Source: an uncultured Acidimicrobiia bacterium (GTDB lineage Bacteria > Actinomycetota > Acidimicrobiia > Spongiisociales > UBA5794). Taken from it: a stretch of DNA of 64,000 nt. Shown here piece after piece: positions 11,126 through 58,224 of the stretch. A program made the position numbers and the translations under genes. The notes beneath the pieces were generated by a model, which saw nothing but the letters and a program-made list of their open reading frames with translations, was not told the DNA's origin and searched no databases. The stretch's first letter is position 1. Each line of letters starts with the position of its first letter. The DNA lies in contig CAVWBO010000007.1 of assembly GCA_963753185.1 (NCBI GenBank), positions 1,610,914 to 1,674,913 on the forward strand, in the 5' to 3' direction.

Positions 11126-11250
11126 ATTGCCTCCTTCATGTCCGTGCGGCTACCAGACGATACCCGCCCGGAGCCCGCTTGGCGACGGGTCGGCGATGCG
11201 ACCGCACACAGAGGCGTCATGGAGGAGCCGAACCACTAGCGTGGAACCCC

Positions 11251-11496: not shown

Positions 11497-11506
11497 GGAG
11501 GCCAGG

Positions 11507-12463: not shown

Positions 12464-12533
12464 ATCGGACGTCCTGAGCGCTGTCCCTCGTGTCCCTGGT
12501 TCCATCCAACGCCTGACGCGGTTCGTCAGCACG

Positions 12534-12624
12534 CCGTCCCTCAACCGGCCGTCCCTCAACCGGCCGTCCCTCAACCGGCCGTCCCTCAACCGGCCGTCCC
12601 TCAACCGGCCGTCCGTCAACCGGT
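12534..12624. repeat. tandem direct repeat, 15-bp unit (GCCGTCCCTCAACCG) x6, the last copy with one substitution
   Basis: Read directly from the sequence: ccgtccctcaaccgg repeated head-to-tail. It lies between the convergent 3' ends of the 11507..12463 and 12616..13131 genes. Confidence 0.9.
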
Positions 12625-13131
12625 GGGGGCGATCAGCTCCACCACGACGTTCCGACGCTCGTCGATCTCGGGCTCTGCAACCGACGGTGCGACGGGATGC
12701 TCCGCCTGTCCGGACAACCCGAAGGCCTCGCGGTATTCGGCGACCTTCGCAACCACAGCACGGACAACGAGCCTCGTGTGGTCGTCGTTGCCGTTCCTGA
12801 GGGTCTCGAGGTCGTCATCGTCGGTGGAAATGACGGTTGCACCCGCACGCCGGATGTCGACCAGCATGATCTCCTGGAGCATCTTGTCGGGTGAGAGGGA
12901 ATCGAGCCGTGCAATCACCACGGCATCGGCCGATCCGGATCGCACGAGCTCGAGGAGGGCCCGGAAGCCGGGACGGTCGAGCGGTGCCGCAGATGCGTGG
13001 TGATCCTGGCAGATGGCGACGATGTCGTTACCCGTGTCGAGCGCCCAACGACGAATGCGCTCACTCTGGGCGAACGCGGTGTCCGACTGTCCGCGCCCGG
13101 GTGCCTCCCGGACGTACCCGACGATTTTCAT
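12616..13131 (-). CDS. serine-recombinase (resolvase) N-terminal-domain-like protein, catalytic Ser apparently replaced; no HTH domain
   Basis: MKIVGYVREA...RPGFRALLELVRSGSADAVVIARLDSLSPD parallels the resolvase pattern GYARVS...RPGL..LL.....GD.LVV..LDRLGRS. The nucleophilic Ser and the LDRLGR arginines are not conserved. Confidence 0.45.
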   Translation of the reverse strand: MKIVGYVREAPGRGQSDTAFAQSERIRRWALDTGNDIVAICQDHHASAAPLDRPGFRALLELVRSGSADAVVIARLDSLSPDKMLQEIMLVDIRRAGATVISTDDDDLETLRNGNDDHTRLVVRAVVAKVAEYREAFGLSGQAEHPVAPSVAEPEIDERRNVVVELIAPTG

Positions 13132-13283
13132 GATGCCTTCCTAGGATCGATCGCAGTATCCCAGAGCTGCGATGCGTGGTCAATCACCAGCGTTGCGTGG
13201 TCGCAAGGCGGGGAGGCGGACCCGAGGCACTCGACCGGTCCGTCGGGAACCGCCACATCGATCCATTGCTACGATACCGGGCC

Positions 13284-13772
13284 GTGGCAAGGACGCTCGT
13301 GCTGAACGCAAGCAATGAGCCGCTTTCGGTGGTTCCCGCTCGACGCGGCGTCGTGCTCGTACTCGCAGGGACCGCCGACCTCGTCGCCCATCGAGGCGAG
13401 GTTTGGAGATCAGGGCGGATCTCGGTCGACGTGCCGAGCGTCGTGCGGCTCCGCCGCTACGTGTCGGTGCCCCACGCGAGGGCCATTCCGCTCAATCGGC
13501 GGGCGATCTTCGCTCGCGACGAACACCGCTGCCAATACTGCGGCGGATCTGCCGAGAACGTCGATCACGTGATTCCGCGGGTGCTCGGCGGCACGCACCG
13601 CTGGGACAACGTCGTCGCGGCTTGTCGCCGATGCAACACCCGAAAGGGAGGGCGCACCCCGACCGAGGCAGGTCTCCAGCTGAGGCGCCAACCCACCAAA
13701 CCGGGGCGATTCGATTGGGTGCACGTCGCGGCAGGCGATGCCCTCGATGCGGCGTGGCGACCCTTCCTGTGA
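13284..13772 (+). CDS. HNH endonuclease
   Basis: HNH motif CQYCGG...DHVIPRVLGG...NVVAACRRCNTRKG. The N-terminus (RTLVLNASNEPL) matches the conserved actinobacterial HNH family. The start was taken at GTG 13284. Confidence 0.7.
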   Translation: MARTLVLNASNEPLSVVPARRGVVLVLAGTADLVAHRGEVWRSGRISVDVPSVVRLRRYVSVPHARAIPLNRRAIFARDEHRCQYCGGSAENVDHVIPRVLGGTHRWDNVVAACRRCNTRKGGRTPTEAGLQLRRQPTKPGRFDWVHVAAGDALDAAWRPFL

Positions 13773-19734: not shown

Positions 19735-21077
19735 ACGCTTCTACACGTCTCGAATGGCCGATCCAAGCTGTCGCGGCAGCCGTCGCGGGAAGGCTGATCG
19801 GAGGTGGCGAGGCCATCGTCTCGTTTGTCGCGACGGACAGCCGTTCGGACGTCCGCGGTGCGGCATTCGTCGCCATTCGCGGAGATCGATTCGACGGGCA
19901 CGACTTCGTAGCTGCCGCGATCGAAGGAGGCGCCGCAGTGGTGATCGTCGATCGCTCGTATCGAGGGTCCGTTGAGCCGAGGATCGTTGTCGACGATACG
20001 CTGGCTGCCCTCCTCGATCTCGCAGTGAAGCGGCGAGGCGAGCTGACCGTACCGGTGATCGCCATCACCGGATCCACGGGCAAGACCTCGACGAAGGACC
20101 TCGTCACGGCTGGGATCGCGGGCTCCTGGGCTTCGCCGAGGTCGTTCAACAACGAGGTCGGCCTGCCGCTCACCGTCGTGAACACACCGGAAGCTGCGAC
20201 GGCAGTCGTCCTCGAGGTCGGGTCACGAGGGAAGGGACACATAGCCTCGATGCGGGCGGCCATTCGCCCTGACGTCGCGGTCGTCACGAACCTCGGTGTC
20301 GTCCACCTCGAGACCTTCGGATCGGAGGAGGGTCTCGCCAACGCGAAGTACGAACTCATCGAAGCGCTCGGGCCGTCGGGTGTCGCCGTGGTGCCCGACG
20401 ACGAGCCCCGTCTCCAGCGGGGAACCGCGCCCCACCAGCTGACTTTCGGCGAAGGTCGAGGGGACGTGGCCGTTGCGGACATCGTCGTCGATGCACTCGG
20501 ACGTCCGACGTTCTCCCTCAGCGCTGCAGGGACGTCCCACAGGGTGTCGCTCGCCGTCGCAGGAGCGCACCATGCCCGCAACGCCGCCGCTGCCGTCTGC
20601 GTGGCGGTCGCGCTCGAGTATGACGTCAGCGAGTTCGTCGAGCGTTTGTCCGTGGCAGCAGGCTCGGCGTGGCGCATGGAGATCCACGAGGGTCGGTTCA
20701 CGGTCATCAACGACGCGTACAACGCGAACCCACAGTCCGTCGCCTCCGCCCTCGAGACACTCGCGGCGATGGGGGGGGCACGGCGATACGCCGTTCTCGG
20801 GCCGATGGCAGAGCTCGGGCCTGTCTGTGAGACGGCCCATCGGGAGATGGGTCAGCTCGCGTCGCGGCTCGGAATCGACGGGATCATCGTCGTGGGAGTG
20901 GACCACGGCTACGTCATCGGCGCGGGTGCACTCGCCACGAATGCCGTGGATATCGAGGATGCAGCCGATACGCTGCGCGCCGTCGTGGAGCCGGGAGATG
21001 TCGTGTTGGTCAAAGCGTCGCGTTCGGCGGGTCTCGAGCGGCTCGCCATCGCCCTCGCCGAGGAGGCACGACAGTGA
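19731..21077 (+). CDS. murF: UDP-MurNAc-tripeptide:D-Ala-D-Ala ligase MurF
   Basis: GTG overlapping the murE stop; ITGSTGKTSTKD P-loop; Mur ligase family. Confidence 0.85.
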   Translation: MNASTRLEWPIQAVAAAVAGRLIGGGEAIVSFVATDSRSDVRGAAFVAIRGDRFDGHDFVAAAIEGGAAVVIVDRSYRGSVEPRIVVDDTLAALLDLAVKRRGELTVPVIAITGSTGKTSTKDLVTAGIAGSWASPRSFNNEVGLPLTVVNTPEAATAVVLEVGSRGKGHIASMRAAIRPDVAVVTNLGVVHLETFGSEEGLANAKYELIEALGPSGVAVVPDDEPRLQRGTAPHQLTFGEGRGDVAVADIVVDALGRPTFSLSAAGTSHRVSLAVAGAHHARNAAAAVCVAVALEYDVSEFVERLSVAAGSAWRMEIHEGRFTVINDAYNANPQSVASALETLAAMGGARRYAVLGPMAELGPVCETAHREMGQLASRLGIDGIIVVGVDHGYVIGAGALATNAVDIEDAADTLRAVVEPGDVVLVKASRSAGLERLAIALAEEARQ

Positions 21078-28739: not shown

Positions 28740-29837
28740 ATGACGAGGGATACAGCCAAGGCGCCGAGCACCTACTTGGCCGTCATCAAGGTGGTCGGTG
28801 TCGGAGGCGGAGGCGTCAACGCCGTCAATCGCATGATCGACATGGGAGTCGGTGGGGTCGAGTTCATCGCGGTGAACACCGACGCCCAGGCCCTCCTCAT
28901 GTCCGATGCCGATGTCAAGCTCGACATAGGGCGTGACTCCACGCGCGGTCTCGGAGCGGGGGCCAACCCCGAGGTCGGTCGCGAGGCCGCAGAGGACCAC
29001 AGGGACGAGATCGAGGATGCCCTCGGAGGGTCCGACATGGTCTTCATCACGGCCGGTGAGGGTGGGGGGACCGGCACCGGTGCAGCTCCCGTCGTCGCGG
29101 AGGTTGCTCGATCCCTCGGCGCACTTACCGTCGGCGTCGTCACACGGCCCTTCGGCTTCGAGGGCCGCCGCCGCTCCGTCCAGGCGGAGCAGGGAATCCA
29201 AGCCCTCAAGGCAGCGGTCGACACGCTGATCATCATTCCGAACGAGCGCCTCCTCGAGATCGCGGACCAGAACACTCCCGTCGTCGACGCCTTTCGGATG
29301 GCGGATGAGGTCCTCACGGCAGGGGTCAAGGGGATAACCGAGCTCATCACGACCCCGGGGCTGATCAACGTCGACTTCGCCGACGTGAAGACGGTGATGT
29401 CCGACGCGGGCTCAGCGGTGATGGGGATCGGTGTCGCAACGGGTGACAGTCGGGCCCTTCAGGCGGCCGAGAAGGCGATCTCGAGTCCACTACTCGAAAC
29501 CTCGATGGAGGGCGCACGGGGTGTGCTCTTGTCGATCGCTGGACCCAGGGACATGACCCTGCACGAGGTCAACACGGCCGCATCACTCATCAGCGAACAC
29601 TCCGACGCCGATGCGAACATCATCTTCGGATCGGTGATCGACGAGACGCTCGGTGATGAGATGCGGGTCACGGTCATCGCGGCCGGGTTCGACAGGGACC
29701 GACGGGGAAGCTTCACGCCGTCGCTCCCCGGCACGACGGCGCCACCTCGCCAACGGTCGTCGCTGCTCGATCAGGGTCGCGACGACGGACCTGATGGAAC
29801 CGACGAGATGGACATCCCCGGATTCGTTCAGGGATGA
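28740..29837 (+). CDS. ftsZ: cell division GTPase FtsZ
   Basis: Tubulin signature [20 protein letters not shown] motif, and a disordered C-terminal tail. A GGGAGAGG SD precedes the start. The alternative GTG is at 28731. Confidence 0.9.
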
Positions 29838-30458
29838 TCCGATCGGAGGCGATCCGAACGGTCGCGTTCGGCACCCTCGCCGACGGCGACGGACGCACAG
29901 ACCCTGACGCGCGAAGTCGGATGAGCGCAACCCTCGGTATCCCCGACGCTTGGGCGACGATCACGCAGGTCCACGGCGCAACCGCGCGCCGCGCGATGGA
30001 GGCTTCCCCGCTCGGGGAGGCCGACGGGGTATGGACACCTGAACGGGATCTCCCGATCGTCGTGGCGACGGCAGACTGCGTTCCGGTGGCGATCGAGGCA
30101 GGCGGTGCCATCGGCCTTGTCCATGCGGGCTGGCGCGGCGTGGTGGCTGGCATCGTGACAGCGACGATCGAGGCAATGGTGGATGAGGGGCAGGAACCGG
30201 CACGCGGCAGTCCTGGGACCCCACATCGGGCCTTGCTGCTACGAGGTAGGTACCGAGGTCATCGAAGCCGTCGGGGGCCATGAATCACGAACCATGTGGG
30301 GGACGGTGAGTCTCGATCTCGCGGGGGCGATTCGCGAGCAGCTGGTGGACATTCCAGTCGAGGAGGTAGCGATCTGCACACGTGAGGACGGTCGTTTCTC
30401 ATCACATCGACGCAACGGCACCAGCCATCGACAGGTGACGGTGGCGTGGCGGTCGTAG
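29834..30458 (+). pseudogene. pgeF: pgeF/yfiH (DUF152 purine nucleoside phosphorylase/laccase-like), frameshifted around 30185-30210
   Basis: The N-terminal half (HAGWRG motif) is in one frame (29834..30283). The C-terminal half, with the IGPCCYEVG motif, is in the +1 frame (30183..30458). The frame switch occurs near a GGGG run. Confidence 0.7.
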
Positions 30459-31113
30459 GGCTCGATGCCGTGCTGGACCGGATTGCACGGGCATGCGCAC
30501 GTCGCGGTGTGGGGAGCGACGGCATCACACTCGTGGTCGTGTCGAAGCATCGCACGGACGAGGAGGTTCTCGCGGTGTACGAATGCGGCCAGCGCGTGTT
30601 CGCAGAGAATCGCGCACAGGAGCTCGCGCGCGACGCGACGCCGACCTCCCCGATGACATCGAATGGCACTTCGTTGGGCCCCTGCAGAGCCGGAAGGCGG
30701 CATCGGTCGGCGGGAACGCAGCGCTCCTGCAGTCGATGGACAGGCTGAAACTCGCTCGGATCTGGCGGGACCACTCCATCGACACACCGGTCCTGGTGCA
30801 GTTCAACCTGGCGGGAGAGCCGCAGAAGTCTGGGTTCCCGCCCGACGAGCCGGGTCGGGTCCTCGATGATCTCGTCACGCTCGGCCTCGATGTGAGGGGC
30901 GTGATGGCGATTCCTCCGAACGCCACCGATCCCGAGTCGGCGCGACCGTGGTTCGCCCGGCTCCGGGAGATTTTCGACCTCTACCGGAGGGACCTGCCGA
31001 CGATCGACACCTGTTCGATGGGTATGTCGAACGACCTCGAGGTCGCGATCGAGGAGGGTGCCACCATGGTGCGCATCGGACGGGCTATCTTTGACAGGAC
31101 AGCCGACACCTGA
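30446..31113 (+). pseudogene. yggS: PLP-homeostasis protein YggS (alanine-racemase-fold), frameshifted around 30631-30645
   Basis: The N-terminus (VVSKHRTDEEVLAVYECGQRVFAENRAQEL) is in frame 30446..30748. The rest (IEWHFVGPLQSRK...) is in frame 30493..31113. The shift lies in a gcgcgcgacgcgacgccgac repeat. Confidence 0.7.
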
Positions 31114-37590: not shown

Positions 37591-39062
37591 CCGCCCACTA
37601 TGAACGCCTCTCCAACCTCGACGCATCGTTCCTGGCCCTCGAATCCCGCTCGACCCATATGCACGTCGGCGCCGTCGCGATCTTCGGTCCGGGACCCCAT
37701 AGCACGGCGGACGGAGTGGACATCGGCTTCATCCGCGATCTGATCGCCTCGCGACTCGACGCGATACCGAGGTATCGCCAACGGATCGCGACCGTTCCCA
37801 TCGAAGGTCACCCCGTGTGGGTCGATGACGAGCATTTCCACCTTGACTACCACGTTCGTCACACGGCCCTCCCCAACCCGGGGAGCGACGACCAGCTCAA
37901 GGCACTCGTCGGGCGGCTCATGTCCCAGCAACTCGATCGAACCCGCCCCTTGTGGGAGCTGAACATCGTCGAGGGGATCGAGGGGGGCGGGTTCGCGGTC
38001 GTTGGCAAGATCCACCACTGCATGATCGACGGAATCTCCGGCATCGACCTGATGGCGGTCATCCTCGACTTCACGCCGGACGCGCAGATCACGCCGGCGA
38101 CGCCGTGGAAACCGAGGCCCGCCCCGAACGGGACCGAGCTGGCGGTGAAGGAGATCTCGCGAGCGCTCTCGACGGTGCTCGCGAACGTCTCGGACTTCTC
38201 GTCGATCGTGTCGGACATCGATGCGGTACGCAACGACCTCGGGAAACGGGTGCGCGCCGTGGGCGCGTCGCTGTCATCGGGATGGTTGACCCAGACCGGC
38301 CACACGCCGCTCAACGGCCCGATCGGACCGGCGCGATGGTTCGACTGGATCGACATCCCCCTCATCGACGTGAAGGCGATCAAGAACGAACACGGTGCAA
38401 CGGTCAACGATGTGATGCTCGCCATCGTCGCCGGCGGTGTGCGCCGCTACCTCCTCACCGAGGGGGGGATGACCGACGAGGAGGTCGCCGCGACCGAGTT
38501 TCGGATCATGGCACCGGTGTCCGTGCGGTCCGAGACGGAGCAGGGAACCCTTGGGAACAAGGTGGCGATGTGGCTGATGACCCTGCCGATCGGTGAACCC
38601 GACCCGGCCACGCGGGTCAAGGCGGTCACGGAAGCGACCAAGAACCTCAAGGAGACGGACCAGGCGCTCGGAGCGTCGACGCTGGTCTCGGTGTCGACGG
38701 GAGCACCGGCGACGATCGTTTCCCTCGCCACACGCCTGGCGAGTGGCATCCGCCCGTTCAACATGACGGTCACGAACGTTCCAGGACCCCAATTCCCGAT
38801 GTACCTCGCGGGCAGTGAGATGCAGGCGTCGTATCCCCTCGTCCCGCTGTGGCAGAGCCACGGTGCAGGTGTTGCGATGTTCTCGCTCAACGGGAAGATC
38901 GACATCGGGATCAACATGGACAGGACCCTCATCGAGGAACCTCGAGCGCTCGGTGAGGCGATCCGGGCATCGTTCGAAGAGCTCGTCCGAACGCCTCGCG
39001 CCACGACACCCGAACCTCGCGCCAAGAAGGTCAAGAAGGCGCCTCCCATGGGAACCCGCTAG
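37587..39062 (+). CDS. wax ester synthase/diacylglycerol acyltransferase (WS/DGAT) family
   Basis: Active-site HHxxxDG motif (HHCMIDGISG) within an N-terminal condensation-like domain; 491 aa. Confidence 0.8.
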   Translation: MTAHYERLSNLDASFLALESRSTHMHVGAVAIFGPGPHSTADGVDIGFIRDLIASRLDAIPRYRQRIATVPIEGHPVWVDDEHFHLDYHVRHTALPNPGSDDQLKALVGRLMSQQLDRTRPLWELNIVEGIEGGGFAVVGKIHHCMIDGISGIDLMAVILDFTPDAQITPATPWKPRPAPNGTELAVKEISRALSTVLANVSDFSSIVSDIDAVRNDLGKRVRAVGASLSSGWLTQTGHTPLNGPIGPARWFDWIDIPLIDVKAIKNEHGATVNDVMLAIVAGGVRRYLLTEGGMTDEEVAATEFRIMAPVSVRSETEQGTLGNKVAMWLMTLPIGEPDPATRVKAVTEATKNLKETDQALGASTLVSVSTGAPATIVSLATRLASGIRPFNMTVTNVPGPQFPMYLAGSEMQASYPLVPLWQSHGAGVAMFSLNGKIDIGINMDRTLIEEPRALGEAIRASFEELVRTPRATTPEPRAKKVKKAPPMGTR

Positions 39063-39106
39063 TCCAGGAGCACCGAACGACCGAAGGTTCGACGTCTGCG
39101 CAGCCG

Positions 39107-40132
39107 TCAGCCGAAGAACGTCCTCGCCGTCGCATAGAGCGACTCGGGTACACCCCTGATCCCTGACGTCGCCTCCTCGAGTGGCACCGGCACGATCTCC
39201 GTGGCTTTGACACCCGCCATCACGTTCGTGAGGCCATCGATCGCCATGTCCGCTGCCGCGACGCCGAGGCGCGTGGCGAGCACGCGGTCGGAGGCGGCAG
39301 GCGTGCCGCCACGCTGGATGTGCCCAAGGATGGATACGCGAGTTTCGAAGCCGGTCAGATCCTCGATGGCGTCTGCAACCTGATAGCCGACGCCGCCGAG
39401 GCGGTCGAACCCGAAGGCGTCCTTCTTGAGATCGAGGGGCTGGTACCCCGCGGGTGGCTCGATGCCCTCCGCGATGACCACGATCGAGTATCGGTGACCC
39501 GTCCGGTGGCGCTTTCGCAGCGTCGATGCGACCTGTTCGAGGTCGTATGCGAATTCCGGTATGAGTACGTAATCCGCACCACCCGCGATCCCCGCGTAGG
39601 TCGCGATCCATCCCTTCGTTCGACCCATCACCTCGACCACGATGACGCGGTTGTGCGCCTCCGCGGTCGTTGCGAGACGGTCGATCGCCTCGGTCGCGAT
39701 CTGGACGGCTGTGGCGAACCCGAAGGTGGTGTCCGTGCCATTGATGTCGTTGTCGATCGTCTTTGGCACACCGATGACATTCAGGCCCTCCTCCGCGAGC
39801 TGCCTGGCTGAACGGAGCGTGCCATCGCCTCCGATGACGACGAGCCTGTCGATGCCGTTGCGTGAAATGGTGGCGCTGCACGACGACAGTCCGTCGCCGT
39901 GCACATAGGGGTCCATCCTCGAGGTTCCGAGCATCGTTCCGCCTCGCCCGAGGATGCCACGTACCGCGTCACGGTCGAGGGTCATGGTGCGGTCGTTCAT
40001 GAGGCCCTCCCACCCGTCACGTATCCCCACGACCTCGGTGTCGCGCTCGAGGGCCCTCCCGACGACACCGCGGATGACGGCATTGAGTCCTGGGCAATCG
40101 CCACCTGCGGTGAGCACTCCGATGACGCTCAC
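39107..40132 (-). CDS. pfkA: 6-phosphofructokinase
   Basis: TAGGDCPGLNAVIRG, GGDGT and MGR motifs; 341 aa. Whether it is ATP- or PPi-dependent cannot be decided from the sequence. Confidence 0.85.
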   Translation of the reverse strand: MSVIGVLTAGGDCPGLNAVIRGVVGRALERDTEVVGIRDGWEGLMNDRTMTLDRDAVRGILGRGGTMLGTSRMDPYVHGDGLSSCSATISRNGIDRLVVIGGDGTLRSARQLAEEGLNVIGVPKTIDNDINGTDTTFGFATAVQIATEAIDRLATTAEAHNRVIVVEVMGRTKGWIATYAGIAGGADYVLIPEFAYDLEQVASTLRKRHRTGHRYSIVVIAEGIEPPAGYQPLDLKKDAFGFDRLGGVGYQVADAIEDLTGFETRVSILGHIQRGGTPAASDRVLATRLGVAAADMAIDGLTNVMAGVKATEIVPVPLEEATSGIRGVPESLYATARTFFG

Positions 40133-40238
40133 GGATCCTCCTCGGAGGGGTTGCGGACCGATCGTAGGGCGTGAACGGTGCTCGTCGGGCGTGTTCGCGC
40201 CGCCCTAACATTAGGGGTCCGCCGGGTCACGCGATCGG

Positions 40239-43200
40239 GTGGTGATCTGGGCGAGACAGGCACGACGAAGGCGGGCACGCACAAGCCGCCCCACATGCTT
40301 ACATGCATGGTATTCGACGATCGAGGTCCGTTTGGCCGACAGCTTCGCCCACCTTCATGTCCACACCGAGTTCTCCATGCTGGACGGGGCTGCTCGTGTG
40401 CATGATCTCGTGAGGGCCGTGGAAGCAGACGGCCAGCCGGCTGTTGCGATCACCGATCACGGCGTGCTGTATGGCGTCGTTGACTTCTACAGGGCGGCAC
40501 GGGACGTCGGGGTGAATCCCATCATCGGCATCGAGGCGTACGTCACCCCGGGAAGTCGATTCGACCGGCCGGCGCGCCGTGACGACATCCGTTACCACAT
40601 GACGATCCTCGCTGAGAACGAGACCGGGTATCGCAACCTGATGCAACTCGCGTCGCTCGCGTATCGGGACGGGTACTACTACAAGCCGCGCATGGACGCG
40701 GAGCTGCTCAGCACCTACTCAGAGGGCCTGATCGCGACAACGGGGTGCCTCGGTGGCCACGTCCCGCAGCTCCTTGGTGTCGACGAACCCGCCGACGACG
40801 ACCAAAGGGGCCAGGAGCGTGACGTCGACGCCGCGATCGCCGCCGCCGCGATGTATCAGGACATCTTCGGCAGGGACAACTTCTTCATCGAGCTCCAGGA
40901 CCATGGCATCCCGGCTCAGCGGCGGATCATGGCGGATCTCCTCGACATCGGGAGGCGAATCGACGCACCGCTGCTCGCGGCGAACGACTCCCACTACACG
41001 CGGGCAGACGAGGCAGATGCCCACGATGCCCTGCTGTGCATCCAGACCGGGTCGGTGAAGTCCGAGGAGAACCGTTTCAAGTTCCACTCCCAGGAGTTCT
41101 ACGTGAAGTCGGCGGACCAGATGCGGGCGCTGTTCCCGTCCGGCGAGTTTCCCGGCGCATGCGACAACACGCTCTGGATCGCCGAGCGGGCGCGTGTGGA
41201 GATCGAGTTCGACCAGATCCTGCTTCCGAACTTCGAGGTCCCCAGCGGATACGACGAGGACTCGTACCTGCGACACCTCGTCGTCGAGGGCGCCAGAGCC
41301 CGTTACGGGACACCCGATGCGGTCGTGTCGGATCGGATCGACTACGAACTCCGTGTGATCTCGGAGATGGGGTTCTCTGCGTACTTCCTGATCGTGTGGG
41401 ACCTCATCGCCCACGCCGCCCGGCGAGGAATCCGGACAGGGCCGGGTCGCGGTAGCGCCGCGGGTTCGATCGTCGCATATTGCCTGAGGATCACCGACCT
41501 CGACCCCATCGCCTACGGCCTGATCTTCGAGCGCTTCTTGAACCCCGGCCGCAAGGAGATGCCGGACATCGACATGGACTTCGACGAACGGTACCGGTCC
41601 GAGATGATCGCCTACTGCGCCCAGAAGTACGGCTCGGACCACGTGGCGCAGATCATCACCTTCTCGACCATCAAGGGGAAACAGGCGATCAGGGATGCAG
41701 CCAGGGTGCTCGACTATCCCTACTCGGTCGGGGACCAGCTCGCGAAGGCGATGCCACCCGCGATCCTCGGAAACGACGCGACGATCGACCAGTGCCTCGA
41801 GGTACCGGGAGGGGACGCGTCGACCATCGACCGCGATCACTACTCCGCCGCGTCGGGACTCCGGGAGCTTCTCGACACCATGGATGGTGCCCGCGAGATC
41901 ATCGAAACGGCACGCGGGCTCGAAGGCCTGCGACGCCAGGACTCGATCCACGCGGCGGCTGTCGTGATCTCACCGCAACCGCTGACCACGATCGTTCCCA
42001 CCCAACAGAAGGGAGAGGGCGCCGAGATCGTCACCCAATACGAGATGCATGGGGTCGAGGCGCTCGGGCTCCTCAAGATGGATTTCCTCGGCCTTCGCAA
42101 CCTCTCGACCATCGAGCGGTCCCTGGAGCTGATCGAACGCAATACGGGCACTCGTCCGGACATCGACGGGGTGGCCCTCGACGACCCTGCCGTGTACGAA
42201 ATGCTCCAGCGAGGCGACTCGGTCGGAGTCTTCCAGTTCGAGGGCGGTCCGATGCGTGCCCTCATGAGGAACCTCGGACCTGACCGGTTCGAGCACCTCA
42301 TCGCGCTCAACGCGCTGTACCGGCCAGGCGCCCTCGGCGCAGGAATGCACCTCGAATACGCCGATCGCAAGAACGGCAAGGCCGAAGTCGGCTACCTCCA
42401 TCCCGATCTCGAGCCTGTCCTGTCCGACACCTACGGGATCATGGTCTACCAGGAGCAGGTGATGCAGACCGCCGAGCGAGTCGCCGGCTTCTCGATGGTC
42501 GATGCGGACAGCCTTCGGAAGGCGATGGGAAAGAAGATCCCCGCCCTGATGAGGGAGCAGCAGGACAAGTTCGTCGCAGGGTGCATCGCGAACGGCTACG
42601 AAGAGCAGCTCGGTGTCGACCTGTTCGGCTTCATCGAGCACTTCGCCGGATATGGCTTCAACAAGAGCCACTCCGCGGCGTATGCGCTCGTGGCCTACCA
42701 GACGGCCTGGCTCAAGGCCCATTACCCAGCCGAGTACATGGCTGCCCTCCTGACCTCCGTCAAACGTGACAAGGATCGGACGGCCGCGTACCTGCACGAG
42801 TGTCGCATGATGGGGATCCCCGTACGTGTCCCCGGAGTGAACGTCTCGGAACGGGACTTCCTCGCCCACGATGGACAGATCATCTTCGGCCTGTCAGCCG
42901 TGCGCAACGTCGGAGAGGCGGTGACCGACCTCATCGTCGCTGAACGGCTCGAACACGGACCATACGAGGACTTCTTCGACTTCATCGACAGGGTGGACAT
43001 CCAGGTCCTCAACAAGCGAACGATCGAGTCGATGATCAAGGCTGGCGCGTTCGACTCACTCGGGTATTCACGGCGCGGATTGCTCGAGGTTTCGCACACC
43101 ATCGTCGATGGGACCCTCGATCGACGCCGCGCCGAGGAGGCGGGCCAGTACAGCCTGTTCGGCGGCTCCACGGCCACGGCGACCGCGGTCGGGACGTCGG

Positions 43201-45844: not shown

Positions 45845-46057
45845 GTGGCGCAACTGGACATGGACGACTTCCTCAGGCGATTCGCCGAGCGGGCCGAGGC
45901 CGTCAAGGAACGTGGCGTACCGCCCCTCGAGGGTCAGGCCCGCAAAGCGTTCATCGATTCGGCCGAGAAGGATTTCCTCGACTACTCGTTGATCGCCTCC
46001 GCATCGTGGACGGTCGACGACGGCCACCTGGTGCTGAGGATCCCGCTCTCAGGCTGA
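45845..46057 (+). CDS. small hypothetical protein
   Basis: 70 aa, acidic, with no TM segment. Its 3' end overlaps the convergent 556-aa gene by about 9 nt. Confidence 0.35.
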   Translation: MAQLDMDDFLRRFAERAEAVKERGVPPLEGQARKAFIDSAEKDFLDYSLIASASWTVDDGHLVLRIPLSG

Positions 46058-47719
46058 GGGATCGTCGATCCCGAGATCTGCCCGCCTGGCGGCTGCCCTC
46101 CGTTCGGTTTCGATGCGGGCGAGGTCGTAGTCCTCGTGGTCGACGAAGGTCATTGCATCGGCGATCCTGCGGTGGCCTGCGACGTCACGGATCTGGTCGT
46201 GCATGATCTGGCAGACCCGCCGGTAGTCCGGGTGGCCACCCTGCTGGGTTCGCAGTTCGAGCATGTGGAACGCCTCGCGTGCATTCAGGTTCATCGCGAA
46301 CCGGATGTTGAACGCAAAGGGGATGGCATATTGTGCAACCGAGCTCGACGTGCGGGACGAGAGCGCTGCGTGGTACTCCGCGAGGTCATCCATGGCGCCG
46401 TCCCACTCCGACTCGGCCCCGATGTCGATGACCGATTGCGGAGTGATGTAACCGTGGTCGACGCCGAGGTCCTGCCACTCGATGGTGAGCATCCGGTGGC
46501 GCTGCAGGTCGCGGAAGATCCCGTAGTCGCACAGGATGTCGAAGCGATAGAAGGTCTGCTCCATCGCGCGGCCGGGTTTGTGGCGTCGATTGGTGCGGGT
46601 CCCGATGTACGCACCGAAGATCTCATCGATCTCGGACTCAGACATCGCGTCGACGATCCCTCGAATCTGGGCTTCGGGGAGGTTGGATGCGCCGTACAGG
46701 GCGGCTGCCGCGACCTTGCGCTCCCCGTCACGGTCGTAGTCGACGAGTGTCACGGCAGGAGCCCGTTGGGTGTCAGACGACAGCCGTGCTGCCAATACCT
46801 CCATCGCGCGGCGATTGTCCGACAAGTACTCTGTCCATGCGCCGCCCCTGTCGGGGACATCGACACGCTTCATGAAGGATGGGATCATCGTGCGCAGCTC
46901 ACGAAGCATCTCGGTTCCGCACCACTGCACCTCCTCGAGTGGATGGGCTGCCATGCGCAGGAGGAGGGACTCGTAGGCCTGACCTGACGCGAATACGCCG
47001 ACGTTCGAGAGGGTCGCGGCAGGCAGGAGGCCCCGTGCGTCGTCGCACGCCTTCGCCCTGATGGTCGACCTCCACACGAAGGACGAGTCGCCATCCTGGC
47101 GGGGATAGAGCTCCTCGTAGTAGGTGACGAGCCTGCCCACGATCGCGCTGTAGGTCTCGAAGAGTCCGTCCATCGTCGTCGTGTACTCGTCCGCGAGGCC
47201 TGCGCCGGCGATCTCGGAAGGGACCACGTACCGAAAGCGACCACCGAGTCGGGTGTCGTAGAAGATGTAGCGCGTCGATTGCTCGAGGTACGACGCGAGG
47301 CGCCCCCACTCGAGCACCTTCGTGAGGATGTTCGATGCCTGTTCGACGGCGACGTGGGCGGCGCCGAGCTGCGCTACCGAGTCGTCCCCGTACTGGGTGA
47401 AGACCCTGTCGTAGAGCTGCTCGGCGCGTTCGAGCCCGACGGTGTCACTGTCGGACCTTGCTGTCGCGATGTGTCGGATTCCGAGGTCCGGGTCGGCAGC
47501 GAACTCATCGAGGAACAGTCGCCGGACCGACTTGTCCGACCTGCTGTAGCGTGCGAAGAGTGCCCCTTTGACGACCTCCGGGAGGTTCCGTATCCCGAAC
47601 ACCGGACGATCGAGATTCGTGAAGAACGGTTCGAGGGTCGCTCGCTCGCCATCGGTGAACGTCTCGATGTGGAAGGGTGGGGGAGTGGGTGTCACGTCCT
47701 GGTCTCCTGGGTGAGGCAC
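46049..47719 (-). CDS. hypothetical 556-aa protein (possible tandem ThyX/Thy1-like RHR-motif domains)
   Basis: Long ORF with a good start context. It contains FRDLQRHRML and ARYSRSDKS segments reminiscent of the flavin-dependent thymidylate synthase RHR signature, but the downstream S..S.RY part is not evident. Confidence 0.35.
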   Translation of the reverse strand: MPHPGDQDVTPTPPPFHIETFTDGERATLEPFFTNLDRPVFGIRNLPEVVKGALFARYSRSDKSVRRLFLDEFAADPDLGIRHIATARSDSDTVGLERAEQLYDRVFTQYGDDSVAQLGAAHVAVEQASNILTKVLEWGRLASYLEQSTRYIFYDTRLGGRFRYVVPSEIAGAGLADEYTTTMDGLFETYSAIVGRLVTYYEELYPRQDGDSSFVWRSTIRAKACDDARGLLPAATLSNVGVFASGQAYESLLLRMAAHPLEEVQWCGTEMLRELRTMIPSFMKRVDVPDRGGAWTEYLSDNRRAMEVLAARLSSDTQRAPAVTLVDYDRDGERKVAAAALYGASNLPEAQIRGIVDAMSESEIDEIFGAYIGTRTNRRHKPGRAMEQTFYRFDILCDYGIFRDLQRHRMLTIEWQDLGVDHGYITPQSVIDIGAESEWDGAMDDLAEYHAALSSRTSSSVAQYAIPFAFNIRFAMNLNAREAFHMLELRTQQGGHPDYRRVCQIMHDQIRDVAGHRRIADAMTFVDHEDYDLARIETERRAAARRADLGIDDPSA

Positions 47720-51072: not shown

Positions 51073-52240
51073 GGACCAGGAGCATCGAAACGACGAGTCC
51101 CGCGCCGAGCCCCGACACCGTCGCGGCGAGCCCGATCGTGTCGATGAGCCACGCACCGATGCCGAAGCCGGCGATGCTTCCGACGATTGCCGCGTTCGTG
51201 ACCCATGCGTTCGCCGTTGCGCGAACCCTTGTCGGGAAGAGCTCCGATCGATGCGCTCCGAACGACGGGGTCAGCATCGTGGCTCCGAGCGTCGCGAGGA
51301 ATATCGAGGCGGCGAGGAACCACCCGGAGTCGAGTGCGTAGAACCCGACTCCTCCCACGAGCCCGATCGCGAGTGCTGCAACGGACGTCGGTCGGCGTCC
51401 GTACCGATCGGCAGCCCGACCTCCGACGAGGAGCCCGACTGCCCCGACTCCGGAGAAGACGATGAGGAGGAATCGAGCGGCGCCGGTATCCCAATCGAGG
51501 TCGTTGATCAGCCGTTCGAGAACGAAGTCGAACGCCGGGGATGAGAATGCAGCGACGAAGAACGAGATCCCCGCGAGCGGCCAGAAGTGCTTGGAGAGGC
51601 CCATGTCGAGCGCCTTCACGAACGCGATCCGGGGTCCCGGTGTGAACGCGCGGCTCTCCGGGAGGTACCGCGAGAGCATCGGGAGGAACAGGAGGCCGAG
51701 CGCCGCAAGCCCGAACAGGACACGCCACGCATTGTCGTTTCGCTCTGCGATCGGCAACAGGATGAGGCCGAGGCCGACACCCATCGAACCGGCGAGCCCC
51801 AGAACGCCGATGCCGAGTGCTCGGACGCCTGGCTGGAGTTCCTCCGCTATCAGGACGAGCGTCAAGGCAGCCAACGCGACGACGGCGAGCCGAACGATGG
51901 CCTGCGAGACAACGTACGCGGGAACCGATGGTATCAGTGCGGTTGCGAGGCTTCCGAAGAGCAGGAGTGCGAATGCCGCCAGGATCGGTCGTTTGCGTCC
52001 GTGGGTGTCGGCGGACATCGCGAAGAGCACGCCGAGAAGTGACACTGCCCTGACGATCGCGAACACGGCACTCATCTGACCTTCCGTGAGGTCGAGAGCG
52101 GTACGTGCAAACGGCAGGGTGTGGGGCATCTGGCTGCCCGCGTAGCCTGCCACGAATCCCATGATCGACGTGAGGAACAGGATGCGCCTGTCCCCACTCG
52201 AGAACGCGGTCAACTGTCGAGTTGAGTTCGGGAGACCCAT
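50984..52240 (-). CDS. MFS transporter
   Basis: 12 TM, with the MFS loop motif ADRYGRRP. Its 3' end overlaps the MATE gene 3' end by 89 nt (convergent). Confidence 0.7.
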   Translation of the reverse strand: MGLPNSTRQLTAFSSGDRRILFLTSIMGFVAGYAGSQMPHTLPFARTALDLTEGQMSAVFAIVRAVSLLGVLFAMSADTHGRKRPILAAFALLLFGSLATALIPSVPAYVVSQAIVRLAVVALAALTLVLIAEELQPGVRALGIGVLGLAGSMGVGLGLILLPIAERNDNAWRVLFGLAALGLLFLPMLSRYLPESRAFTPGPRIAFVKALDMGLSKHFWPLAGISFFVAAFSSPAFDFVLERLINDLDWDTGAARFLLIVFSGVGAVGLLVGGRAADRYGRRPTSVAALAIGLVGGVGFYALDSGWFLAASIFLATLGATMLTPSFGAHRSELFPTRVRATANAWVTNAAIVGSIAGFGIGAWLIDTIGLAATVSGLGAGLVVSMLLVLRLPETRGMDLVRRPVATRGATPRTPPAG

Positions 52241-52405
52241 CGTGCCTTCGTCGACGACGGCGGTGAGGATAGTGGCGTTCGGCCCGGGGAGGCATCGACC
52301 AGATGCGACCCCGAGCTCTGTCCTGGTTCATTGCCATCGTGTGAAGTGGGAACATCAGCGACCCCCGTACCGTTGACCATCCGACGATCCCGGACCAGGG
52401 CAACC

Positions 52406-53152
52406 ATGGAAGTGTCACTCCTAGCAGCAGTCTTCGCCGGAGCGGCGTCGTTCCTCTCACCGTGTGTGCTTCCGCTCCTTCCCGGATACGTCTCCCTCAT
52501 GTCGGGCTACGACATGGCAGAGCTCGCCGAGGGCAACGTGTCGATGGGCAGGGTCGTCGGCCGGACAGCGCTCTTCGTCGGAGGCTTCAGCGCCGTGTTC
52601 ATCGCCCTCGGTGCGACGGCGACGTCCCTCTCGGGGTTCCTCAACCAGTCGATCTTCACGGTGATCGCCGGGTGGTTGATCGTCGCCATGGGTTTGTTCA
52701 TCGCCACGACCGCGGTGTGGACGCCCTCGTGGCTGCTGCCCGTGATGAAGGACCGTCGCATCGAGTCGTCGGGAGCGCGAAGGCTCGGCCTGTTCGGCCC
52801 TCCCGTGATGGGGGCGGCGTTCGCATTTGGATGGACGCCGTGCATCGGGCCGTTCCTGGCGACCGCCTTGCTGCTGGGTGCGAACGGCGACACGGTCACC
52901 GATGGCATGATCGTCCTCGCCTTCTACAGCCTCGGCCTCGGAATACCGTTCCTGCTCACCTCGCTTCTCCTGGCCAAGGCGTTCTCGGCGTTCGCCTGGG
53001 TCAAGCGATACCTCACCCAGATCACGGTGGTGTCAGGTCTGATGCTGGCGTTCTTCGGCGTCCTGCTCATCACGGGACGGATCACCGACCTGTCCGCCTG
53101 GTTCTCGGATCTGCTCATCCGCATCGGCCTCGAGGACCTCGCCGAGATCTGA
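52406..53152 (+). CDS. ccdA: cytochrome c-type biogenesis / thiol-disulfide transmembrane protein CcdA (DsbD-like)
   Basis: SPCVLPLLPGYVS and a second TPCIGP cysteine motif; 6 TM. Confidence 0.8.
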   Translation: MEVSLLAAVFAGAASFLSPCVLPLLPGYVSLMSGYDMAELAEGNVSMGRVVGRTALFVGGFSAVFIALGATATSLSGFLNQSIFTVIAGWLIVAMGLFIATTAVWTPSWLLPVMKDRRIESSGARRLGLFGPPVMGAAFAFGWTPCIGPFLATALLLGANGDTVTDGMIVLAFYSLGLGIPFLLTSLLLAKAFSAFAWVKRYLTQITVVSGLMLAFFGVLLITGRITDLSAWFSDLLIRIGLEDLAEI

Positions 53153-53182
53153 TCCCGCTCGGACCCGGTACCCTCGCCACCC

Positions 53183-54697
53183 ATGCGACCGACGCTCAGC
53201 CTCGACGAGTTCCTGCTGTTGGCTCGCGATCACTCCGTCGTTCCGATCGGTGTGGAGATCATGGCCGACTCGCTGACACCTGTTTCGGCGTATCGGGCGC
53301 TCGCCGGTGCCGGTGACGGTTTCCTCCTCGAGTCGGTGGAGGGGGGGAGCGCTGGGGACGGTGGTCGTTCATCGGATGGTGCCCCGCCTTCACGATCACG
53401 ACGACGCGAGGCGTCACATCCATCGATCACCCCGACGTGGCTGTACCGGATGGGGATCCCCTCGACGTGCTCGCCGCGATCACGGACCGCTATGTCGTGC
53501 CAGACGACTCGGACCTCGGATTCCCCTCCGAGGTTCCTCCCCTCCACAGCGGCGCAGTGGGCTTTCTGTCCTACGACATCGTGCGCCACATCGAACGTCT
53601 GGACAATCAGCCCCCCGATGACCGCAACCTGCCAGAGATGGTGTGGCACATGGTCGGGAAGCTCGCCGCGTTCGACCGCGTGCGCGACTCGATCCTCGTG
53701 ATCGTCAACGTCTTCGTCGGGGACGATCCGTCCACGCAGTATGCGGATGCAGTCGGATCCATCGCCTCGACCATCGAGATCCTCTCGACCTCGACGCCCA
53801 TCGAGGCACTCGAGCGCCCCCGATTCGACGGCGTCCCGAACTCGACGAGCAACATGACGAGGGAGGACTTCGAGGGGGCTGTCCGTGTGGCGATCGACCA
53901 CATCCGGGCTGGCGATGCGTTCCAGATCGTCCCGTCGATCCGATTCGAAGCCACCCTTGGCGGGGATCCACTCGCCCTGTACCGCGCATTGCGGATCGTC
54001 AATCCGTCGCCGTTCATGTTTCTCGTTCGCTCCGGCGAGCTCGCGATCGTCGGCTCGTCCCCGGAGTTGATGTCGCGGGTCCGAAACGGAAGGGTCTACT
54101 CGCGGCCGATCGCCGGCACGAGGCCACGCGGGGAGACGGCGGATGAGGATCTCGCACTCGAACAGCAGCTTCTCGCCGACCCCAAGGAGCGAGCGGAACA
54201 CGTGATGCTCATCGATCTCGCCCGCAACGACCTCGGCAGGGTGTGCGTCTTCGGGACGGTGCAGGTCGATGACCTCATGGTCGTCGAGCGATACTCACAC
54301 GTCATGCACATCGTGTCCGGCGTCTCGGGGGATCTCGTCGAGGGGACGAGCCCTGTCGACGTCCTGCGCGCGACCTTCCCGCACGGAACGGTCTCCGGCG
54401 CCCCGAAGGTCCAGCGCGATGGAGATCATCGACACCCTCGAACCGACGGCGCGCGGTCCCTATGCGGGGGCCGTCGGCTACATCGACTTCTCCGGGAACC
54501 TCGACACGGCGATCGGTCTCCGAACCTGTGTCGTGCGCGGCTCCACGGCGTGGGTCCAGGCGGGCGCCGGCGTCGTCGCAGATTCCGATCCTGCTACCGA
54601 GTACGAGGAGTGCGTCGCAAAGGCTCGTGCCGTCCTCGCTGCCATCGAAGCCGCCCGCCATCTCGGCGGATCGATCCCCGCGGAGGACGAGCGGTGA
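53183..54697 (+). pseudogene. trpE: anthranilate synthase component I, interrupted by two frameshifts (about 53341-53347 and about 54410-54418)
   Basis: Three consecutive pieces in different frames: the N-terminus (53183 frame) up to LLESVEGG; the middle (ERWGRWSFIGW...GTVSGAPKV); and the C-terminus ([33 protein letters not shown], 54269 frame). The first shift lies in a G7 homopolymer. Confidence 0.8.
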
Positions 54698-56073
54698 CGT
54701 TCCTCGACCAGATCCTGAGATCCGCCGACGTCCGAGCCGAGGGTGCTCGGCGCGACATCGAGCACTTCCACGCGAGATCCACCGACGCACCTTCGCAGCG
54801 CAGCCTCGCTGAGGCGCTCGTCGCGGACGGGCTTTCGGTCATCGCGGAGATCAAGCGGCGCTCACCATCCGCCGGCGACATCGATGCATCACTCGATCCT
54901 GTGTCGCTCGCCCTCGCATACGAGGCAGGCGGGGCGGCGGCGATCTCGGTTCTCACAGAGCCCCACTTCTTCGGAGGGTCGCTCGACGATCTGGTGGACG
55001 TGCGCGCTGCAGTCTCGATTCCGGTGCTGCGCAAGGACTTCACAAGGGATCCCGCACAGGTCTGGGAGGCCAGGGCGGCAGGGGCAGACGCCGTTCTGCT
55101 GATCGTCGCTGCGCTTGACGACCGTGACCTGCACGCATGCCTCGCGGCCGCGCACGATGCCGGGGTTGACGCCGTGGTGGAGGTTCACACCCTCGTGGAG
55201 GTCGCACGTGCGGTCGCGGTCGGCGCCGGAATCATTGGCGTCAACAACCGTGACCTTCAGAGCTTCACCACGGACCTCACCGTTGCCGAGACCGTCTCGA
55301 TGGCGATCCCGGACGGCGTGGTGCGAATCGCCGAGTCCGGGGTGTCGTCTGCCGAAGGAGCTCGAAGAATGGCAACGGCGGGCTACGACGCGATCCTCGT
55401 CGGTGAGGCTCTCGTTCGTCACGGCGATCCAGCCTCGTTCGTGAACGACGCTGAGGGGCCTGCCATGACGTGGGTCAAGATCTGCGGGATCACCACGCCT
55501 GAGGCGATCCGGTCGGCAGAGGATGCAGGCGCCGATGCCCTCGGCTTCGTGCTCGCCCCGGGTTCGGTCAGGACCCTGTCCGTCGAGGCTGCGCGCCCCC
55601 TGGTGGGTTCGGCATCGATCTCGACCTATGCCGTGGTCGTCGACCTCACACCCGACGAAGCACTCCATGTCGCCGACACGATCGGGGTGACCGGCATCCA
55701 GGCCCACGGGCTCCACGCTCTGGAAACCGCTCGATCCGCCGCCGAGGCAGGCTTCGAGGTGTTGTGCCCGATTCCGGTCGGCCAAGGCGGGCCCACCGTC
55801 GATCCCGCGGCCGTGGTGTCCGAAGCGGTGGTCCTGTTCGATACCGCCCGACGCAGCGGTCACGGGGGATCGGGCACGCCATTTGTGTGGGGCACCATCG
55901 CCGACATCGAGCGTCCCTACGTGGTGGCAGGGGGCCTAGGGCCCGACAATGTCCGGGAGGTGATCGAGCAACTCGATCCCTTCGGTGTCGATGCGTCGAG
56001 CCGTCTCGAGACCATTCCGGGCATCAAGGATCCCGATACCATCAGGGCCTTCGTCGAGGAGGCCAAACGATGA
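54694..56073 (+). CDS. trpC: bifunctional indole-3-glycerol-phosphate synthase / phosphoribosylanthranilate isomerase (TrpC-TrpF fusion)
   Basis: GTG overlapping the trpE stop. The IGPS domain ([15 protein letters not shown]...VLRKDF...GVNNRDL) is followed, without a stop, by the PRAI domain ([10 protein letters not shown]...GFVLAPGS...). Confidence 0.8.
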
Positions 56074-56089
56074 GCGCCGAGCGTGACCG

Positions 56090-57268
56090 ATGAGACTGCA
56101 ACGCCCCGACACCAGTGGTCGATTCGGTGCCTATGGCGGTAGGTATGCGCCCGAAACCCTGATGCCAGCGCTCATCGAGCTCGAGACTGCCTTCGTCGCG
56201 GCATGGTCGGACGACGCGTTCCACGCCGAGCTATCGGGCCTCCTGAGCGATTTCGTGGGTCGTCCGACGCCCGTGTATCGCGCCACTCGCCTGTCGGAGC
56301 TCCTCGGAATCGACCTGTGGTTCAAGCGCGAGGACCTGGCCCATACGGGGGCCCACAAGATCAACAACACGGTCGCGCAGGGTCTCCTCGCGAAGCGCAT
56401 GGGGAAGAAGCGAGTAATCGCCGAGACCGGTGCCGGCCAGCATGGGGTCGCTACCGCAACGGCGTGCGCGCTCTTCGGTATCGACTGCGCCATCTACATG
56501 GGCGACAAGGACATGGAGCGGCAGTCGCTCAATGTGCACAGGATGCGCCTCCTCGGAGCCGAGGTCATCCCGGTGTCGTCCGGAGCGGGGACCCTGAAGG
56601 ACGCCGTGTCGGCGGCGATGCGCGACTGGGTTGCCTCCGTCGAATCGACGCACTACATCATCGGCTCCGTGGTCGGTCCCCACCCGTTCCCCTGGATGGT
56701 CCGCGAGTTCCAGAAAGTGATCGGCGAGGAGCTGCGAGCCCAAATGAACGGCGTGGTCAGACCCGCCCCGGACGTGATCGTGGCATGCGTCGGTGGCGGC
56801 TCCAACGCGATGGGTGTGTTCCACCCGTTCGCAGGTGATCGAAACGTCGAACTCGTCGGCGTCGAGGCCGCGGGTCTCGGACTCGCGACCGGCAAACATG
56901 GCGCGTCCCTTGGCGAGGGTTCGCCAGGGGTCCTCCACGGTGCGATGACCTACATGCTCCAGGACGAGTTCGGTCAGGTCGAGGAGGCACATTCGGTGAG
57001 TGCCGGTCTCGACTACCCGGGTGTCGGCCCCGAGCACGCATACTTCAAGGATGCCTCGCTCGTCCGATACGAGAGTGTCACGGATGCCGAGGCGATCGAG
57101 GCCTTCCACCTGATGGCGCGAACGGAGGGGATCATCCCGGCCCTGGAGTCCGCCCATGCTCTCGCGTGGATCGTCCGCGAGGCACCTGCCCTCGGTGGAC
57201 GGACGGTCGTACTGAACCTGTCGGGACGCGGGGACAAGGATGTGGACCAGGTCGTGTCCCGACCATGA
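56090..57268 (+). CDS. trpB: tryptophan synthase beta chain
   Basis: [17 protein letters not shown]-terminus, the PLP-lysine region HTGAHKINN, and the GGGSNAMG motif. Confidence 0.9.
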
Positions 57269-58080
57269 GCGGTGAAGGCCGGGCCGAGCTCGAGGCCGTG
57301 TTCGCACTTGCGAGGGCTGAGAACCGCGCCCTCCTCCTCCCATACCTCACGGCGGGTCTCCCGACGCTCGACGACTCCGTCGAGCTGTTCGTCGCGATGG
57401 CAGATGCGGGGGCCGACGGATTCGAGGTCGGCATTCCGTATGCGGATCCGCTGATGGATGGGCCCGTGATCATGCGGGCAGGGGAGCTCGCTCTCGAGGG
57501 TGGCATCACGGTCGAGGGTTCGCTCGAGGTCGTGCGCCGCGTGCGAGAGAGGACGGGAAAGCCGATCCTCGTGATGACGTACGTCAATCCCGTCCTGCGT
57601 CACGGAATCGACGCCTTCTTCGACAGGGTCGCCGACGCGGGAGGATCCGGGGTGATCATCGCGGACCTGCCCGTGGACGAATCGGGGCCGTTCGTCGACG
57701 CGGCCGCCATGCGCGGCCTCGGGATGGTCCAGTTCGCCGCCCCGACCACCGACCATGATCGTCTCGCAGCGATCGCAGGGCGCGATCCTGTGTTCGTGTA
57801 CGCGATCGCCGAAGTGGGAGTGACCGGTGAGCGGCATGGGGCCTCGACCCGGATCGAGGGGCTTGCATCAGCCATCCGAGGCGTGACACAGGCGCCAATC
57901 GTCTTCGGTGTGGGCATTGCGACGCCTGACCAGGCGGCAGCCGCTGCTCGTGTCGGCGACGGCGTGATCGTCGGGACGGCGATCGTGAGACGGGTGCTCG
58001 AATCCGAGTCGGTGGACGACGCCCGCCGTGCACTCGTCGATGCGGTCGAGGCACTAGCCATCGCGGTCCGGCGCGGATAG
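57265..58080 (+). CDS. trpA: tryptophan synthase alpha chain
   Basis: ATG overlapping the trpB stop; TrpA pattern ([10 protein letters not shown]...[21 protein letters not shown]). Confidence 0.85.
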
Positions 58081-58141
58081 ACCTTCAGTTCGCAGTGCGG
58101 CGTCTGCCGATGGAACCTCATGGACATGACGCGTCGCGCCG

Positions 58142-58224
58142 TACCGGGAGTGGGACTCGAACCCACACGAGCTTTCGCCCAACGGATTTTGAGTCCGCCG
58201 CGTCTACCATTCCGCCATCCCGGC
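58142..58224 (-). tRNA. tRNA-Leu (anticodon CAA), CCA not encoded
   Basis: Hand-folded: acceptor GCCGGGA/TCCCGGT, D-arm GCGGAATGGTAGACGC, anticodon loop CTCAAAA, a long variable arm, and T-arm GTGGGTTCGAGTCCCAC. Confidence 0.75.

Follow-up and report, generated by a model that had tools for sequence, protein, structure and literature searches.

We found that four genes within the window carry isolated 1-nt indels, five in total: trpE has two, and trpC, pgeF and yggS have one each. By the window we mean the whole 64-kb stretch of DNA (64,000 nucleotides) from an uncultured Acidimicrobiia bacterium that was analyzed. Two of the indels are deletions and three are insertions, and the inserted base is an A in every case. 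We conclude that all five, including both in trpE, are probably residual errors in the assembly consensus and not part of the organism's DNA. Nothing in the data points to a new mechanism or sets trpE apart from the other affected genes, and the outcome is a caution about annotation.

A complete anthranilate synthase component I is encoded at 53183-54697 on the plus strand, spread over three frames, as seen from three-frame translation and Pfam matches. The preliminary description had claimed as much, with two frameshifts, the first inside a G homopolymer and the second outside any homopolymer, and on both points the translation, the Pfam matches, the alignment to a sister species and a Viterbi scan on codon statistics agree. 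The parts of the gene are as follows.

53183 to 53347, plus strand: trpE piece 1, residues 1-55, frame mod2 from the ATG at 53183 (MRPT...LLESVEGG)
53341 to 53347, plus strand: trpE site 1, a run of seven G's, one base fewer than in all relatives
about 53347/53348 to 54412, plus strand: trpE piece 2, residues 56-410, frame mod1 (ERWGRWSFIGW...GAPKV)
54413, plus strand: trpE site 2, a surplus A within GTC C[A]G CGC G
54414 to 54697, plus strand: trpE piece 3, residues 411-504, frame mod2 (AMEIID...EDER, then the stop)

Piece 2 matches Anth_synt_I_N (62-138) and Chorismate_bind (2-187), and piece 3 matches Chorismate_bind (186-257). The stop codon, TGA at 54695-54697, overlaps the GTG start of trpC at 54694.

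We placed the two lesions by alignment to L001, a sister-species contig from an ENA metagenome that is syntenic with the window over 15 kb at 86.6% nucleotide identity and carries an intact trpE of 505 aa. Site 1 is a 1-nt deletion, GGGGGGCGAG in L001 compared to GGGGGGGAG in the window (in wider context, GAGGGGGGCGAG compared to GAGGGGGGGAG); the codons of the sister species at this position are GAG GGG GGC GAG, and restoring one base in the window yields VEGGERWGRW. Site 2 is a 1-nt insertion, GGTCC-GTGCG in L001 compared to GGTCCAGCGCG in the window, where no slippery motif is found; deletion of A54413 in silico regains GAPKVRAMEIID. The Viterbi scan puts the frame switches at 53341/2 and 54415/6.

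Left unrepaired, the sequence holds the TrpE domains PF04715 and PF00425 without a single uninterrupted frame, and the ORF from the native ATG has 172 codons. The frame of piece 1, continued past site 1, reaches a stop at 53699-53701 and gives a product of 172 aa; this mod2 frame holds four stops, the first of them at codon 173. With a G added at site 1 and A54413 removed, we obtained a TrpE of 504 aa that scores 519.1 bits on TIGR00564 (cut-off 517.7), with residues 28-488 matching profile positions 1-454 of 455. The nearest database protein, P0001, is intact and 90% identical to the repaired TrpE, and codon-by-codon comparison with the relatives showed that the repair keeps both conserved motifs, LLES...GGERWGRWSF and GAPKVRAMEIID. 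We also considered that the two trpE indels might compensate each other, as their net length change is zero; this was rejected, since the shifted frame has stops and the middle segment, read in its own frame, still codes for native TrpE.

The comparison set comprised 17 Acidimicrobiia relatives, among which 266 columns of the TrpE alignment are invariant. The gene is in frame at both sites in all 17, and the repaired TrpE of the window alters none of the invariant columns. Between the window and L001, dN/dS for trpE is 0.128 (Nei-Gojobori), and 14 neighboring genes have values of 0.04-0.19. Thus, with the repaired protein unaltered, dN/dS normal and the relatives in frame, the lesions are either extremely young or not real. 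To judge from these substitution patterns, trpE does not look like a pseudogene decaying under relaxed selection after loss of the Trp pathway. A decay of this pathway had been one of three explanations offered in the preliminary description, and a long-standing decay finds no support, with 266 of 266 invariant columns kept and a dN/dS like that of the neighbors.

The remainder of the operon and the gene upstream of it are as follows.

52406 to 53152, plus strand: gene for a DsbD-like membrane protein, directly upstream of trpE, used as exact-sequence anchor for conspecific contigs
54694 to 55464, plus strand: trpC (IGPS), with a surplus A at 55448 (GAACG[A]CGCTG)
55465 to 56073, plus strand: trpF (PRAI), the C-terminal half of a 459-aa fusion ORF in the window
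56090 to 57268, plus strand: trpB, intact (TIGR00263, 587 bits)
57265 to 58080, plus strand: trpA, intact (TIGR00262, 214 bits)

The insertion at 55448 lies eight codons ahead of the ancestral trpC stop, such that the ATGA stop/start overlap is lost and trpC is fused in frame to trpF; in the L001 alignment, the window near the trpC 3' end reads TTCGTGAACGACGCTGAGGGGCCTGCCATGACG. Throughout the 17 relatives, trpC and trpF are not fused, and the stop of the one overlaps the start of the other in an (A/G)TGA (in L001, for example, trpC ends in FVDALRGAS and the stop). Indeed, removal of A55448 from the window gives FVNALRGLP followed by a stop and the same ATGA overlap. The earlier claim that a trpCF gene, trpB and trpA are intact downstream of trpE is therefore right for trpB and trpA (TIGR00263 and TIGR00262) and wrong for trpCF, which is the product of a 1-nt insertion. 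Read mechanically, the window also contains an 878-aa ORF, 53437-56073, that leads from mid-trpE through the out-of-frame 3' end of trpE into trpC-trpF; it runs through because frame mod1 has no stop there, and gene-calling software might output a chimeric protein from it. Just downstream of trpA, a tRNA-Leu(CAA) gene at 58141-58224 on the minus strand is 95.7% identical to its L003 counterpart in surrounding DNA of about 70% identity.

It had also been noted that trpG and trpD are missing from the cluster, and this is correct, since we found no GATase or Glycos_transf_3 domain (Pfam) in the whole 64-kb window. The closest relatives have an intact trpE and the same order, DsbD-trpE-trpC-trpF-trpB-trpA, without trpG or trpD; since all relatives examined, each with an intact trpE, also lack a clustered trpG and trpD, their absence is no sign of decay. 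The trpE-trpC-trpB-trpA cluster of Mycobacterium tuberculosis, with trpD and trpG elsewhere, is the textbook actinobacterial arrangement. More distant Acidimicrobiia (L004 11886-13801; L014 12218-14609) have a response regulator and a histidine kinase between trpE and trpC.

The gene singled out in the preliminary description, trpE, is not the only broken one: two genes of the division and cell-wall cluster carry one frameshift each.

29834 to 30458, plus strand: pgeF/yfiH (Cu-oxidase_4), with a 1-nt insertion near 30202 (CCGGC[A]CGCGG), frame mod2 to mod0
30446 to 31113, plus strand: yggS (PLP-binding, Ala_racemase_N), with a 1-nt deletion within 30620-30636 (GAGCT^CGCGCGCG), frame mod2 to mod1

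Both genes were flagged by the Pfam coverage of all ORFs in the window, and the breaks were confirmed by three-frame translation, by the Viterbi frame model, which detected both (windows of codon log-odds missed them), and by tblastn with the products of two relatives. In the relatives, pgeF, which directly follows ftsZ, is an intact gene of 207-209 aa and yggS one of 219-223 aa. The repaired PgeF and YggS have fuller Pfam matches (31-238 of 238 and 37-216 of 220). No further stop-free frame switches were detected, with 18-36 kb and 43-60 kb compared to relatives and the remainder surveyed by codon statistics alone. Two other long G runs, G8 in murF (20771-20778) and G7 in a wax-ester synthase gene (38462-38468), are in frame, and thus there is no general homopolymer problem in the window.

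The survey also brought up two features apart from the indels. A small stretch at 11074-13772 with a weak codon signal holds two ORFs without a Pfam match, a minus-strand serine-recombinase (Resolvase) gene and a gene for an HNH endonuclease. This stretch, possibly an insert of mobile or foreign origin, lies upstream of a Usp gene and of mraZ-rsmH, with which the division cluster begins. At 46049-47719 on the minus strand, a ThyX-type thymidylate synthase of 556 aa has two Thy1 stretches and is about twice as long as usual, as is its counterpart in the sister species (548 aa in L001).

We then compared the positions of the five indels. They fall into two clusters, at 30.2-30.6 kb and 53.3-55.4 kb, neither of them longer than 2.2 kb (for five uniform events, p about 0.003); local GC content was rejected as the cause, as it is 0.65-0.67 in the clusters, the same as in the remaining window. 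A GCGC or CGCG is no more than 2 nt away from four of the five sites, and from all five once the indels are repaired; in the window as a whole, this holds for only 10.7% of positions (post hoc test, p about 6e-4). The three inserted A's sit between G/C bases and duplicate no neighbor, and insertion of a non-duplicating A is atypical of spontaneous slippage mutations. Taken together, the GCGC/CGCG bias and the clustering look like a context-dependent error signature, and the A insertions with their GCGC/CGCG adjacency could be a motif-linked signature of either error or mutation.

The indels bear two marks of an artefact: they are isolated 1-nt changes in unrelated genes whose products are full length once repaired, and they show a bias in context (one G homopolymer; GCGC/CGCG adjacency, post hoc). 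Their density is about 1 per 13 kb, or roughly 200 when scaled up to 2.7 Mb, and this is within the published range for assemblies from Nanopore data only, since such assemblies of a high-GC actinobacterium had 114-794 differences per 2.56 Mb, with inflated gene counts (PMC11649196). Moreover, Nanopore MAGs below about 40x coverage retain frameshifting indels (PMC9262707). The errors would have arisen in base-calling, consensus or polishing, and the apparent source, a 2.70-Mb single-contig MAG, is of a size typical of long-read MAGs, which suggests long-read data. In the cell, trpE would then be ordinary and intact, trpC and trpF behind it would overlap without being fused, and trpB and trpA would come next; pgeF and yggS would be intact as well.

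We examined sequences of the same species in other read sets for the state of these sites. The identical DsbD-like protein is found on a 2216-nt Logan contig (a k-mer assembly) of run ERR15459714 that is equivalent to window positions 52207-54422. According to the gene table of this contig, the gene that follows the DsbD-like gene begins 31 nt downstream of it, as trpE does in the window, and is free of stops for at least 413 codons, up to where the contig breaks off. Since the window frame stops at codon 173, a gene with 413 open codons means that the ERR15459714 contig is in frame across site 1. Thus, an in-frame allele of site 1 exists within the same species; ERR15459714 may represent another strain, and this allele is equally compatible with strain polymorphism. 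Its end lies 8-9 nt downstream of site 2, which may be coincidence, or may reflect a variant or a coverage break there. A contig of run ERR12037369 ends too early to inform on the trpE sites.

Two independent Logan contigs of run SRR25893897 match the window elsewhere: L084 is 99.92% identical to 39093-41587 (the pfk-dnaE region) without gaps, and L085 is 98.98% identical to the trpB-trpA stretch (56019-58167) without coding indels. With this 4.6 kb of overlap free of coding indels, the window consensus is good elsewhere. The differences between the window and the conspecific trpB and trpA are six synonymous compared to three nonsynonymous. The unequal identities of L084 and L085 within one run suggest either several conspecific strains or an unusually variable trp region.

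Exact look-ups (NCBI, ENA) placed the window's intact proteins all on one contig of 2,700,352 bp. By the same kind of look-up, the broken ORF products were absent from the protein collection, as were the repaired TrpE (two variants), TrpC, TrpF, PgeF and YggS (five variants), and a homology search of this collection with the 878-aa chimeric ORF returned neither a self-match nor a conspecific fragment. The DNA pattern around site 1 had 0 matches in JGI metagenomes, look-ups via TrpB, TrpA and FtsZ reached no contigs covering sites 2 to 5, and our literature search found no mention of the conspecific run accessions.

We rated consensus error as the best explanation because of the indel rate, the flawless repaired genes, the ERR15459714 allele, the clustering, the context bias and the non-templated A's. 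Of the three options in the preliminary description, sequencing or consensus error is the best supported and is probable, and a very recent strain-specific inactivation is a less likely alternative. Several observations argue against the artefact. Other long G runs in the window are in frame, and L084 and L085 are without coding indels. A further one concerns indispensable-type genes (dnaE, ileS, mur and fts genes, fab genes and polA), which hold ~48% of the window (about 31 kb) and contain none of the five indels. Blind errors would miss these genes with p about 0.04-0.07, with the trpC indel at a harmless position, and their avoidance is the pattern that purifying selection on real mutations would give.

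A serious rival, less likely than consensus error, is that the indels are real, very recent and specific to this strain, with the genes still intact in other conspecific strains; its main support is the avoidance of essential genes and the location of three lesions in one operon. The strain would then have lost anthranilate synthase, such that it is a Trp auxotroph or feeds on anthranilate or indole, and would have lost PgeF and YggS as well and gained a TrpC-TrpF fusion. This fits the finding that each of the five lesions either hits a dispensable gene or sits where it does no harm, with about 31 kb of indispensable-type genes spared (p about 0.04-0.07), and three indels within one trp operon fit relaxed selection after a first knock-out, a logic that leaves the adjacent pgeF and yggS indels unexplained. 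Moreover, public read sets hold conspecific strains that differ by 0.1-1%, which makes strain-specific alleles plausible. The in-frame allele of site 1 in ERR15459714 argues against real lesions. Runs of seven or eight G's or C's are mutational hot spots, and the other long G runs in the window are correct, which also fits real mutations; by contrast, the non-templated A insertions and the GCGC/CGCG bias are not a known pattern of spontaneous mutation. No decay accompanies the lesions (0 of 266 TrpE columns altered, dN/dS normal), and the conspecific trpB and trpA differences, mostly synonymous (6 compared to 3), suggest that the pathway is still selected in the species. Finally, five core-gene indels per 64 kb would mean about 200 in the whole genome, an unusual number where the genome is compact, gene-dense and of the free-living type.

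A variant of real mutation, which we regard as improbable, is a burst of context-specific 1-nt indels beside GCGC/CGCG through a shared mechanism, perhaps linked to methylation or repair, which would have disabled trpE, pgeF and yggS in a wild Acidimicrobiia strain and joined TrpC to TrpF. If such a burst were true, the first step of the evolution of an auxotrophy and of a gene fusion would have been caught in nature.

We give very little credence to the G run as a reversible phase-variation switch, in which slipped-strand mispairing would silence and reactivate trpE. Such a switch calls for an in-frame allele with G8 rather than GGGGGGCG; a G run of 7-8 nt does lie inside the coding region, and another conspecific read set does hold an in-frame allele, but the tract is not conserved, with interrupted runs in the relatives, and the second, non-repeat indel keeps trpE off at any tract length.

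Least probable of all is programmed recoding, which the preliminary description had named as programmed frameshifting; a -1 ribosomal frameshift on G_GGG_GGG or transcriptional slippage would have to be followed by a +1 event near 54413. The sequence GAG GGG GGG AGC fits X_XXY_YYZ in the incoming frame mod2 (53341-53347), and a -1 slip there would give exactly the conserved VEGGERWGRW; however, we found no stimulatory RNA structure 3' of the run in folds without pseudoknots, as 53339-53440 folds at -40 kcal/mol compared to a shuffle mean of -41.6 kcal/mol (for the downstream 100 nt, z = +0.48 and 141 of 200 shuffles fold as well). The 17 relatives are all in frame at site 1 and show no G7 or G8 run there, their codons being GGG GGC, GGT GGT and the like. 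Site 2 is not slippery and has no hungry-codon motif, and a +1 shift there would yield KVSAME or KVQAME, such that the Arg of the conserved KVRAME is not restored. Uncorrected at site 1, the incoming frame stops after 172 codons, and the three isolated indels outside trpE point to a general phenomenon and not to a trpE-specific signal.

Taken at face value, the sequence would be annotated with a Trp auxotrophy, a bifunctional TrpCF that would count as novel, and a chimeric ORF of 878 aa, and metabolic reconstructions from the uncorrected MAG would wrongly omit tryptophan synthesis, PgeF and YggS. If the lesions were real, they would show that one strain of an uncultured Acidimicrobiia lineage lost anthranilate synthase very recently, which would be of modest interest. 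Neither the artefact nor the real lesions would raise a new question.

Among known systems, the trp cluster of M. tuberculosis has the same gene order as the window, and trpG and trpD are absent from the cluster in both, as in all Acidimicrobiia relatives examined; the window differs in having trpF, fused to trpC via a 1-nt insertion. The trpE gene of the window shares a homopolymer of seven within its coding sequence with the 7C phase-variation tract of M. tuberculosis glpK, and a formal slippery heptamer with the A_AAA_AAG -1 sites of dnaX and IS elements. Unlike these three systems, it lacks a stimulatory structure, conservation and a regulatory logic, and it bears a second, non-slippery lesion. 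Young strain-specific pseudogenes of bacteria resemble the genes described here in their disrupted frames, in their intact relatives and in lesions that are absent from at least one conspecific population. The window trpE differs from them in that it has two independent indels with its conserved sites unsubstituted, and the window indels differ in their high local density and their location in core housekeeping genes. Compared to the indels of long-read-only assemblies (PMC9262707; PMC11649196), those of the window are distinct in that four of the five sites are non-homopolymer, that all three insertions are A's beside CGCG or GCGC, and that they avoid essential genes, which artefacts should not do. 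They are like the indels of such assemblies in being isolated 1-nt changes that split conserved genes at about 1 per 13 kb, in including one shortened G/C homopolymer, in their setting on a megabase contig of a high-GC actinobacterial genome, and in that the repaired genes are perfect.
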